Shown here: positions 12,376 through 32,304 of the stretch, piece by piece | Position numbering within the stretch: the first letter of the stretch is position 1 | How the letters are laid out: every line of letters begins with the position of its first letter | Source of the DNA: Escherichia coli | GTDB lineage: Bacteria; Pseudomonadota; Gammaproteobacteria; Enterobacterales; Enterobacteriaceae | Assembly (NCBI RefSeq): GCF_044647545.1 | Contig: NZ_CP172818.1 | Reading direction: 5' to 3' (one strand) | DNA length: 64,000 bases | The notes under the pieces: model-generated | What the model saw: only the letters and a program-made list of their open reading frames with translations | Told to the model about the DNA's origin: nothing | Databases searched by the model: none | Position numbers and translations under genes: made by a program

Positions 12376-13788
<1,413 letters not shown>

Positions 13789-13909
13789 GGTGTTCTGGAA
13801 AGCGCCTCGCATAATCTGAAGAAAACCAATGTAATACGCACATCTGGATTGTTACCGGCCGATGCAGATCCCGGCGTATAGCTGATTCCATTATTCAACA
13901 CTGCGCCAT

Positions 13910-15037
13910 ATGAAGGGACAGATAATGGAATCGCTCTCAGAAGGAACCACAGCAGGCTACCAGCAAATCCACGACGGCATTATTCATCTGGTCGATAGCG
14001 CCCGGACGGAAACGGTACGTAGTGTTAACGCGTTAATGACCGCCACATACTGGGAAATTGGCCGACAAATTGTCGAATTTGAACAAGGTGGCGAGACCAG
14101 GGCTGCGTATGGTGCGCAGCTAATCAAGCGACTATCAAAGGATTTAAGTCTAAGGTATAAGCGTGGGTTTTCCACCAGGAATTTATGGCAGTTTAAGAAT
14201 TTTTATATTTGTTTTCAACGAATTGAAATTGTGCAGACACTGTCTGCACAATTCACCCCCACAATTCGCCAGACACTATCTGGCGAATCTTGCCATTTAG
14301 CGCAACTTGCCAAATCTTTCCCCCTGCCCTGGTCCACTTACGTCCGTTTGCTTTCTGTTAAAAACGCTGACGCTCGTAGCTTTTATGAGAAAGAAACACT
14401 CCGCTGTGGCTGGTCTGCTCGTCAGCTCGAACGGCAAATTGCGACCCAATTTTATGAGCGGACACTACTGTCACATGACAAATCAGCCATGCTGCAACAA
14501 CACGCTCCTGCCGAGACGCATATTCTTCCGCAACGGGCGATACGCGATCCCTTTGTGCTCGAATTTCTGGAATTGAAAGATGAATATTCAGAATCCGATT
14601 TTGAGGAGGCGCTGATCAACCACCTGATGGATTTCATGCTGGAACTTGGGGATGATTTTGCCTTTGTTAGTCGACAGCGAAGGTTACGCATTGATGACAA
14701 CTGGTTTCGTGTCGATCTGCTGTTTTTCCACCGCCGTTTACGCTGCCTGCTAATCGTCGATCTAAAAGTGGGCAAATTCAGCTATAGCGATGCCGGACAG
14801 ATGAATATGTATCTCAACTACGCCAAAGAGCACTGGACGCTACCGGATGAAAATCCGCCCATCGGTCTGATTCTCTGTGCAGAGAAAGGAGTCGGAGAAG
14901 CGCATTATGCACTGGCTGGTTTACCTAACACCGTTCTGGCGAGTGAATATAAGATGCAACTACCTGATGAAAAACGACTCGCGGATGAACTCGTTCGAAC
15001 ACAGGCGGTGTTAGAGGAAGGCTATAGACGCCGTTAA
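13910..15037 (+). CDS. yhcG: DUF1016-family (PD-(D/E)XK nuclease-like) protein YhcG
   Basis: 375-aa ORF; length matches YhcG; contains two of the palindromic repeats described below. Confidence 0.85.
   Translation: MKGQIMESLSEGTTAGYQQIHDGIIHLVDSARTETVRSVNALMTATYWEIGRQIVEFEQGGETRAAYGAQLIKRLSKDLSLRYKRGFSTRNLWQFKNFYICFQRIEIVQTLSAQFTPTIRQTLSGESCHLAQLAKSFPLPWSTYVRLLSVKNADARSFYEKETLRCGWSARQLERQIATQFYERTLLSHDKSAMLQQHAPAETHILPQRAIRDPFVLEFLELKDEYSESDFEEALINHLMDFMLELGDDFAFVSRQRRLRIDDNWFRVDLLFFHRRLRCLLIVDLKVGKFSYSDAGQMNMYLNYAKEHWTLPDENPPIGLILCAEKGVGEAHYALAGLPNTVLASEYKMQLPDEKRLADELVRTQAVLEEGYRRR
14227..14253. repeat. Palindrome copy 1 (aattgtgcagaca-c-tgtctgcacaatt), perfect 13-bp arms, inside yhcG
   Basis: Read directly; shares the core cagacaCtgtctg with copies 2 and 3. 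Confidence 0.9.
14263..14288. repeat. Palindrome copy 2 (aattcgccagaca-c-tatctggcgaat), one arm mismatch, inside yhcG
   Basis: Read directly; 36 bp downstream of copy 1. Confidence 0.85.
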
Positions 15038-15041
15038 TTTC

Positions 15042-15069
15042 AGCGGTTTCGAATTCTCCAGACACTGTC
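15042..15069. repeat. Palindrome copy 3 (gaattctccagaca-c-tgtctggagaatc), immediately 3' of the yhcG stop codon
   Basis: Read directly; same core, non-coding location. Confidence 0.9.
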
Positions 15070-15096
15070 TGGAGAATCTTTAAAACGAACTAAGTT

Positions 15097-16429
<1,333 letters not shown>

Positions 16430-32213: not shown

Positions 32214-32304
32214 CTGTTGCCACCGTCACGTTTCGCGGCGAGTTCTGCCGTTCATTGCTAAGTATAGCCATGAAAAAACCGACGCTTTTGGCGTCGGTTT
32301 TGAC

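Follow-up and report, generated by a model that had tools for sequence, protein, structure and literature searches.

A self-complementary 27-bp element at Escherichia coli yhcG recurs in genes of the DUF1016/YhcG nuclease family

Repetitive extragenic palindromic sequences (REPs) are about 35 nt long, lie outside genes, reach hundreds of copies per genome and have their own transposase (RAYT, REP-associated tyrosine transposase). Rickettsia palindromic elements (RPEs), of 100-150 bp, insert into many unrelated genes of one genus. The attC sites of integrons are 57-141 bp in length, carry RYYYAAC/GTTRRRY core sites and extrahelical bases, lie 3' of open reading frames (ORFs) and require the tyrosine recombinase IntI. 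Other sites lie within the gene of their own protein, as in phiX174 (the origin in gene A), pT181 (the IRII origin hairpin in repC) and hin (the Hin enhancer). We describe here a 27-bp palindrome found in three copies in and just beyond yhcG, a gene of the DUF1016/YhcG family, within a stretch of 64,000 nucleotides of the Escherichia coli contig NZ_CP172818.1 (hereafter the window). Comparison with other genomes shows that such palindromes are a feature of the whole DUF1016/YhcG family rather than a local oddity.

The three palindromes (Table 1) are in one register, share the core CAGACA-C-T[G/A]TCTG and are the sole members of their family in the window. An initial annotation of this DNA had already reported three palindromes at yhcG; it located copy 1 correctly and set copy 3 at 15042-15069, rather than ten bases rightward at 15052-15078, where the element lies. 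Its size of ~26 bp was approximate, the exact element being 27 bp (13+1+13). It had also described a triplet that differs between copies and is mirrored in the opposite arm of the same copy; we find the same, except that the mismatch assigned to this triplet in copy 2 falls outside it, the triplet (CGC/GCG) being fully mirrored and the mismatches lying at one core position and at the outermost position. Copy 1 encodes I-V-Q-T-L-S-A-Q-F (E-I-V-Q-T-L-S-A-Q-F with the preceding codon) at about residue 111 of the ORF from 13910, and copy 2, 36 nt or 12 codons further on in the same frame, encodes I-R-Q-T-L-S-G-E-S (T-I-R-Q-T-L-S-G-E-S with the preceding codon). Copy 3 begins 14 nt past the yhcG stop and would give I-L-Q-T-L-S-G-E-S if translated.

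In the window, the 13-nt core with at most one mismatch gave five strand matches at three sites, where 0.05 were expected, and the full pattern with at most three mismatches gave three sites and none in 100 shuffles. Palindromes of any sequence with the 13+1+13 form and at least 11/13 complementary positions numbered seven against 0.85 expected, with the core common only to copies 1-3. DNA folding predicted a hairpin of -12.1 kcal/mol (z-score -5.4) for copy 1 and of -11.1 kcal/mol (z-score -9.6) for copy 2. A 40-nt direct repeat prolongs the likeness between copies 1 and 3 by 14 nt leftward, and copy 3 appears to be an in-gene copy that was duplicated along with the 14 nt to its left. Copy 3 and an in-gene copy bracket the 3' three-quarters of yhcG, including the nuclease domain.

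Table 1. Features of the yhcG region, in coordinates of the window
Feature	Coordinates	Strand	Description
Copy 1	14227-14253		AATTGTGCAGACA C TGTCTGCACAATT; 13/13 arm positions complementary; inside yhcG
Copy 2	14263-14289		AATTCGCCAGACA C TATCTGGCGAATC; 11/13; inside yhcG, about residue 123
Copy 3	15052-15078		AATTCTCCAGACA C TGTCTGGAGAATC; 12/13; non-coding, between convergent yhcG and nanQ
40-nt direct repeat, left member	14213-14252	+	78% identity to 15038-15077; found by repeat search
40-nt direct repeat, right member	15038-15077	+	begins immediately past the yhcG stop codon
Mosaic, highly diverged patch	14170-14307	+	about 140 nt: the palindromes and about 60 nt to their left
yhcG	13910-15037	+	longest ORF; stop codon 15035-15037; DUF1016_N + YhcG_C PD-(D/E)XK nuclease gene
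gltD	12388-13788	+	gene of the region
nanQ	15097-15561	-	convergent to yhcG

We searched one genome per species, covering 100,044 species, with the pattern AATTNNNCAGACANTGTCTGNNNAAT; the counts are lower bounds. At least 120 stretches matched, far above the chance expectation of about 1-2 derived from 19 fixed bases, 298 Gb and two strands. The matches listed come from Bacteroidia, Clostridia, Proteobacteria, Verrucomicrobia, Planctomycetes, Chlorobi and several archaea. Among them, 94 of 127 sites are in or beside ORFs matching YhcG, with many of the others in fragments of such genes, and the centre falls at codon position 1 in 117 of 122 in-gene copies. Two or three palindromic copies are present at 24 loci, mostly in tandem inside one DUF1016 gene and 30-108 nt apart; such multiple in-gene copies, and also extragenic ones, are common in the DUF1016/YhcG family. 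The number of tandem copies per gene is one to four, with four QP.A-type repeats seen at the protein level in P0191. The genes themselves may also be repeated: tandem DUF1016 arrays occur at L079 (997-3797; four ORFs or fragments) and L023 (2734-5893; two complete genes).

A second sample, of viral and proviral contigs, was fetched by three peptide patterns from the C-terminal part of the nuclease domain and was therefore blind to the palindrome. A palindrome of at least 11/13 is at the expected place in 57 of its 76 distinct genes, and one of at least 10/13 in 69 (about 90%). Equally long control stretches taken further downstream in these genes reached 11/13 in none of the 76 and 10/13 in five. 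Palindrome density was 2.09 per kb at the expected place and 0.13 per kb elsewhere.

The consensus, drawn from the 127 canonical and 50 other sites, has the general form AATT-N7-CA-N-TG-N7-AATT, the commonest form being AATT-NNN-CAGACA-S-TGTCTG-NNN-AATT. The inner arms are highly diverse (GCGAACGCG, GCGTCCGCA, GTCGTATCA, TGCTACACA, CTCTCCACA and others), and the AATT ends and CA-N-TG centre persist. Copies 1 and 3 of the window fit the family form fully when the ends are taken as AATT or A/G-ATT; copy 2 departs from it at the centre, where TA replaces TG, and at the outermost base, which is C. The family location, in the loop stretch of DUF1016_N with the centre at codon position 1, holds for copies 1 and 2; copy 3 is extragenic, as are a minority of copies elsewhere.

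The symmetry of the arms extends beyond the bases used to find them. Positions 7-9 from the centre, which lay outside the search pattern, are complementary in 89, 88 and 73% of the 127 sites listed, where chance would give 25%, and all three are complementary in 77 of the 127, against 1.6% expected. Arm symmetry stops at position 13. In 50 distinct sequences, all 13 pairs have changes on both sides (183 cells against 59.8 +/- 6.2 in shuffles) and covariation scores 0.703, whereas shuffles give 0.181 and slid partners no more than 0.18, both of these controls ignoring kinship. These 50 sequences were picked for pairing, so that the percentage paired is given by construction and the diversity of pair types is not. 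This covariation shows that the nucleic acid itself is subject to selection or to a process that restores symmetry.

In Salmonella, Citrobacter and Kluyvera, yhcG likewise lies 3' of gltBD, with one palindrome in each gene and none outside it. The triplet is CCG/CGG in Salmonella (AATTCCGCAGACACTGTCTGCGGAATC) and CAG/GGT, with one mismatch, in Citrobacter (GATTCAGCAGACACTGTCTGGTGAATC) and Kluyvera (AATTCAGCAGACACTGTCTGGTGAATC); the E. albertii palindrome (AATTCACCAGACAGTGTCTGGTGAATT) has CAC/GTG. Palindromy is conserved between orthologues while the mirrored triplets differ, which supports the suggestion in the initial annotation of an element selected for hairpin or cruciform formation or of a family of dimeric binding sites; both possibilities are compatible with the data. 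The annotation had allowed that orthologues might conserve the amino acids and not the palindromy, and we find the reverse: the nucleotide palindrome is kept while the amino acids vary.

Diverse representatives of the family have QT.S, HT.C, ST.W, DA.R, QP.A or HP.G peptides at the same place, and each of these back-translates to a palindromic core. For four cores other than QT.S, we fetched the DNA of the genes and found the palindromes present. The core GATTCGAGACGCG C TGCGTCTCGAATC encodes IRDALRLES, and further variants are AATTGTGCACCCA C TGGGCGCACAATT, GATTCTCCACACG C TGTGTGGAGAATC and AATTCTCTCCACA G TGTGGAGAGAATT. An AlphaFold2 model of YhcG, computed from an alignment of 30 sequences, gives residues 108-125, which are those encoded by copies 1 and 2, a pLDDT (predicted local distance difference test) below 50 between well-predicted helices. 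In-gene copies throughout the family lie in the stretch coding for a loop between the third and fourth helices of the N-terminal domain. Because the peptide swaps with the arms, the loop has a pLDDT below 50 and the number of modules varies from one to three among E. coli alleles, the encoded peptide is shown to be a passenger of the DNA element. An explanation of the repeat at the protein level was ruled out by the fixed synonymous positions and the coordinated amino-acid swaps. The peptide varies with the arms in a loop of low confidence, and selection is therefore on the nucleic acid.

We compared 5,426 complete E. coli genomes, in which the locus from gltD to nanQ is polymorphic. BLAST with the palindrome found 1-5 places per genome, although a palindromic query may count one site on both strands, and every copy that we looked at is confined to the gltD-nanQ interval. 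In K-12-type alleles, yhcG contains three copies spaced 39 nt apart and is followed by one more beyond its stop, each with its own mirrored triplet. These strains have a further palindrome, AATTCGCCAGACTGTGTCTGGCGAATC (L005 1504-1530), 14 nt past the gltD stop, which precedes the gltF-yhcA-F fimbrial island, so that the island and yhcG are enclosed by two copies. Strains that lack yhcG keep one perfect palindrome between gltD and nanQ. On its left it has the flank of the post-gltD copy, and on its right one homologous to the flank of the post-yhcG copy; 563 genomes contain the 34-mer of this empty site without mismatch. In strain HH97 (L211), the N-terminal part of yhcG is joined at a palindrome to the empty-type right flank, and in CFSAN004176-type strains (L002) unrelated DNA replaces the C-terminal part of yhcG exactly past the third palindrome.

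Within the gene, YhcG protein clusters of 349, 362 and 375-382 aa correspond to alleles with one, two and three modules of 12-13 aa, and the deletion in alleles P0035 and P0063 begins at the palindrome. The window and K-12-type alleles are near-identical outside the mosaic patch of Table 1, with few scattered differences in its flanks; the patch was defined from an alignment of the window, K-12-type, L002 and L004 alleles, its flanks being judged by eye, and in the K-12-type allele it ends at the last palindrome. The post-stop copy of K-12-type strains has CTG/CAG and a central G, and differs from copy 3 at two mirrored positions and the centre in otherwise identical flanks. On the strength of the empty site, the HH97 junction, the L002 replacement, the deletion alleles, the varying module number and the mosaic patch, the palindromes in E. 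coli are hotspots and breakpoints of rearrangement.

The replacing DNA in CFSAN004176 and many other strains (L002 1387-1692) holds a 101-aa ORF annotated as 'transposase', with a 10-bp inverted repeat, GGCACAGAGC...GCTCTGTGCC, downstream of it. We considered this ORF as a hairpin-binding transposase, but it is without a Pfam or NCBIfam match and gives no lead.

Copies outside the ORF are found in several arrangements. The clostridial genes L017, L034, L025 and L073 have the palindrome downstream of an extended -10 box and 2-6 nt upstream of the ribosome-binding site. The DUF1016 gene of L034 has a palindrome on both flanks. At L043, direct repeats of 51 nt (98-100% identity), each containing a palindrome, enclose a complete DUF1016 gene whose internal motif has decayed to SQTISAGL. 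An orphan copy lies in a type I restriction-modification (R-M) locus at L090, in the order hsdM, 16 nt, palindrome, 26 nt, hsdS, and at L096 (3738-4710) the order is hsdR, palindrome, a 255-aa ORF without a Pfam match, palindrome and a DUF4357 ORF. A crude search found type I R-M neighbours at 25 of 206 loci, with hsdM-DUF1016-hsdS as the usual order. Across hosts, the gene contexts have nothing in common except the DUF1016 gene.

Three tandem palindromes adjoin hsdR at L026 (12384-12512) and L044 (4518-4747), where DUF1016 coding similarity was undetected in the surroundings; those of L026 are degenerate (10/13) and those of L044 better preserved (10-13/13). At these loci, the palindromes seem to outlast the DUF1016 gene. 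In a Legionellales metagenome-assembled genome (L020 4088-4137), two perfect palindromes with different triplets overlap via AATT with a 23-nt period, directly 3' of a 175-aa ORF in an 8-kb locus without a DUF1016 gene.

The protein encoded by yhcG matches the Pfam families YhcG_C (1.9e-55, residues 209-360) and DUF1016_N (5.9e-43, residues 24-184), the PADLOC candidate defence family PDC-S02 (1.3e-133) and one PHROG to which no function is assigned; a search of NCBIfam with YhcG returned no family. Its nuclease domain is of the NucS/archaeal Holliday-junction resolvase type, and was earlier placed closest to archaeal Holliday-junction resolvases and YraN (PMC1189080). At 50% identity and E values up to 0.001, the DUF1016/YhcG family has 23,906 representatives, from bacteria, archaea and phages, and its genes are frequent in type I R-M operons. 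We found no function, ligand or solved structure on record for DUF1016/YhcG, and in a paper on programmed inversions DUF1016 appears merely as a neighbour of inverted genes.

Two observations bear on whether the element works as DNA or as RNA. The central base on the sense strand is C in 61 and G in 53 copies, with no preferred orientation, and mismatches on that strand are G.T in 42 cases and A.C in 65 (p = 0.03). A functional mRNA hairpin should strongly favour G.U, and the strand bias of the mismatches argues weakly against an mRNA function. Because the centre is unoriented and G.T is not favoured over A.C, there is moderate evidence for a dyad-symmetric DNA site, duplex or cruciform, rather than an mRNA element.

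We propose that the palindrome is a dyad-symmetric DNA site, in duplex or cruciform form, cognate to the PD-(D/E)XK nuclease that the same gene encodes, and that it would be used in cis; we infer this from sequence relationships and regard it as an even prospect. The DUF1016 protein is the likely reader, since it is the only factor common to all hosts and contexts. A domain of the NucS/Holliday-junction-resolvase type fits a symmetric duplex site or a cruciform, and the site is kept beside the gene where the internal copy is lost. A symmetric oligomer of the nuclease would read the site of its own gene, either as duplex or as an extruded cruciform. Action would be preferentially in cis, and a site in the ORF would keep site and gene linked and free the action from the local promoter, which would suit a gene that is often dropped into foreign operons. 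The output could be a promoter-independent feedback control of the gene, an option raised by those Clostridia that place the palindrome between the -10 box and the ribosome-binding site. It could also be local breakage and recombination, an option raised by the E. coli palindromes as breakpoints of loss, truncation or replacement, module change and mosaic conversion. Feedback control, break-induced recombination, or both, are each compatible with the data.

Several points weigh against a site read by the encoded nuclease. The link between YhcG and the site is one of association, consisting of co-occurrence in about 90% of genes and retention by the gene. A duplex-reading dimer has no need of a symmetric triplet that it does not read, and the mirroring of such a triplet needs either hairpin or cruciform pairing or the correction of a quasipalindrome by template switching. 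A nuclease gene that carries its own cleavage site would need some restraint, and none was identified. Ordinary recombination or slippage at repeats of 27-45 bp could account for the rearrangements in E. coli without any dedicated enzyme. The hsdM-DUF1016-hsdS operons are tightly packed, with a copy in the gene only and flanks without copies, and extragenic copies accompany only about 5% of the sampled genes. Finally, the count of G.T against A.C is confounded by coding constraints, such as the stop codon produced by T at +9.

Instead, the palindrome could be an att-like cassette site, through which DUF1016 and sometimes other genes would enter, leave and be exchanged, as in type I R-M operons, with the nuclease or host enzymes acting on a folded or cruciform form. 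We consider this unlikely, despite a number of suggestive loci: the L043 gene between its direct repeats, the L034 gene flanked on both sides, the L096 ORF between two palindromes, L090, which resembles an empty or scar site where DUF1016 usually sits, and the empty, half and full configurations of E. coli with their junctions at the palindrome. The combination of conserved ends with variable paired arms would also resemble the logic of attC. Against this, about 90% of the genes have the site in the middle of the ORF and not at a cassette boundary, so that recombination would split the gene, and flanked genes are few. We saw no recombinase travelling with the element, although no systematic integrase search of the loci was made. 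The direct repeats overrun the palindrome by variable amounts (45-51 nt), which fits homologous recombination or duplication equally well, and the orphan tandem degenerate copies by hsdR look like the remains of decayed genes.

It is decidedly unlikely, if instructive to consider, that DUF1016/YhcG and its palindrome form a minimal self-mobilising or self-converting unit, with a structure-defined site within the ORF of the enzyme. An Hjc/NucS-like nuclease would act as resolvase on the cruciform that its own 27-bp site extrudes, and repair of the break or rejoining at other copies would insert, excise, swap or convert gene segments. If true, such a unit would explain the DUF1016 genes inside type I R-M operons and the leftover orphan sites, and would be a previously unrecognised recombination system.

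The palindrome could also act in the transcript, as a hairpin with a stem of 12-13 bp and a 3-nt loop that is bound or cut by the protein for feedback or that stabilises 3' ends. RNA folding, which the initial annotation had suggested, did predict stable hairpins (-15 to -17 kcal/mol, z-scores -4 to -7), the clostridial location in the 5' untranslated region (UTR) before the ribosome-binding site is a classic position for a translational operator, and the two convergent genes have copy 3 in their 3' UTR. An RNA role nevertheless seems quite improbable, as G.U is no commoner than A.C among sense-strand mismatches, C and G are equally frequent as the loop base, which gives no polarity relative to transcription, and orphan copies, like the copy of yhcG-less strains, are untied to a DUF1016 transcript. 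A terminator scan of both strands called none at 15052-15078 (tails TTTAAAACG / TCGAAACC), and copy 3 was rejected as an intrinsic terminator for that reason. Rfam cmscan over 13700-15300 with E values up to 10 gave no match to the palindromes, its two snoRNA-like matches being chance ones elsewhere in the gene.

Template-switch correction of quasipalindromes is a recognised mutational hotspot mechanism. That the element has no function of its own, being a self-maintaining quasipalindrome or a protein repeat whose extra E. coli copies are duplication debris, is very improbable: such correction would copy any change in one arm to the other with no need of selection, the loop that holds the peptide is tolerant and copy number drifts between alleles, but position, frame, 13+1+13 length and the AATT and CA-N-TG bases are kept across phyla in about 90% of genes, the element reappears upstream of the ribosome-binding site where the internal copy has decayed, and protein constraint explains neither the fixed synonymous positions nor the coordinated changes from QT.S to HT.C, DA.R and ST.W.

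In the window, yhcG is flanked by gltD and the nan genes; its start is probably at 13925 (MESLSEG, 370 aa), judging from the RefSeq coding sequence of the near-identical allele L004. The closest E. coli genomes have about 65 bp at the end of gltD that the window lacks (window 13780-13800, L004 680-770). The last six codons of gltD (MNWLEV) and a downstream hairpin, CAGCGCCG...CGGCGCTG, are swapped for ATGAGGTG, and GltD ends in ...AADGI. A quasi-palindrome of 10/13, GAGCGCTATATCA A CGATAAAGCGTTC, lies within gltD at 12754-12780 (centre 12767), and the gltD genes of Salmonella, Citrobacter, Kluyvera and E. albertii have a counterpart at that position (10-11/13). The peptide encoded is ERYINDKAF, and coding constraint may suffice as the cause of the symmetry. 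Unrelated 11/13 palindromes with centres at 32288 and 53664, AAAACCGACGCTT T TGGCGTCGGTTTT and CAAAAGGCCGGAT T TTCCGGCCTTTTT, resemble ordinary intrinsic terminators. The yhcG antisense RNA G0-10703 was set aside as a link to the palindromes, since it concerns the 5' region of yhcG instead. Operators of the CRP, LexA and MetJ types were rejected on half-site spacing, with no search aimed at them.

A search of 8 million full texts found no earlier description of a DUF1016/YhcG palindrome. Among protein-associated palindromic cis elements, the element stands out in that it is intragenic, occurs family-wide across domains of life and carries a passenger peptide. The covarying intragenic palindrome provides the first concrete hypothesis on the substrate of DUF1016/YhcG and is a clean example of a DNA element dictating the sequence of a protein segment. 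It bears on annotation, on the 'conserved motifs' of Pfam DUF1016_N and on the reading of yhcG allele diversity in E. coli.

The comparison with the systems named at the outset shows partial likeness to each. Like attC, the yhcG element is an imperfect palindrome with short conserved ends and a variable self-complementary interior, its structure being conserved over its sequence, and it can flank gene cassettes and occurs in arrays. It differs from attC in its 27-bp length, AATT ends, CA-N-TG centre, both-strand symmetry and location mostly inside an ORF, and the test for attC core sites was negative, the element having no GTTRRRY and (near-)perfect symmetry. With phiX174 A, pT181 repC and hin it shares the placement of a site, often a hairpin or cruciform, inside the gene of the acting protein, with the linkage and cis action that this allows, whereas the proteins in those cases, HUH initiators or serine invertases, have known reactions and the link to YhcG is inferred.

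The sites of PD-(D/E)XK enzymes (type II restriction enzymes and I-Ssp6803I) and the operators of C proteins resemble the palindrome in combining a dyad site with a symmetric oligomer, in the case of the nucleases of the same fold. The core of the commonest palindrome contains GACNNNGTC, and DUF1016/YhcG is associated with R-M loci. Restriction enzymes, however, do not have their site conserved within the gene that encodes them, and unread spacer bases in such sites show no mirroring; the targets of homing endonucleases are destroyed by insertion of the gene, and C-boxes lie in promoters. RPEs, too, are palindromic repeats that can lie in frame within ORFs and add a passenger peptide, and REPs and the bacterial interspersed mosaic elements (BIMEs) occur 3' of stop codons between convergent genes, as does copy 3. 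The test for RPEs failed on the 27-bp length and the restriction to one gene family and its surroundings, and that for dispersed REP/BIME copies on the finding of three copies in 64 kb, all at yhcG. Unlike RPEs and REPs, the yhcG element is tied to one gene family across prokaryotes.

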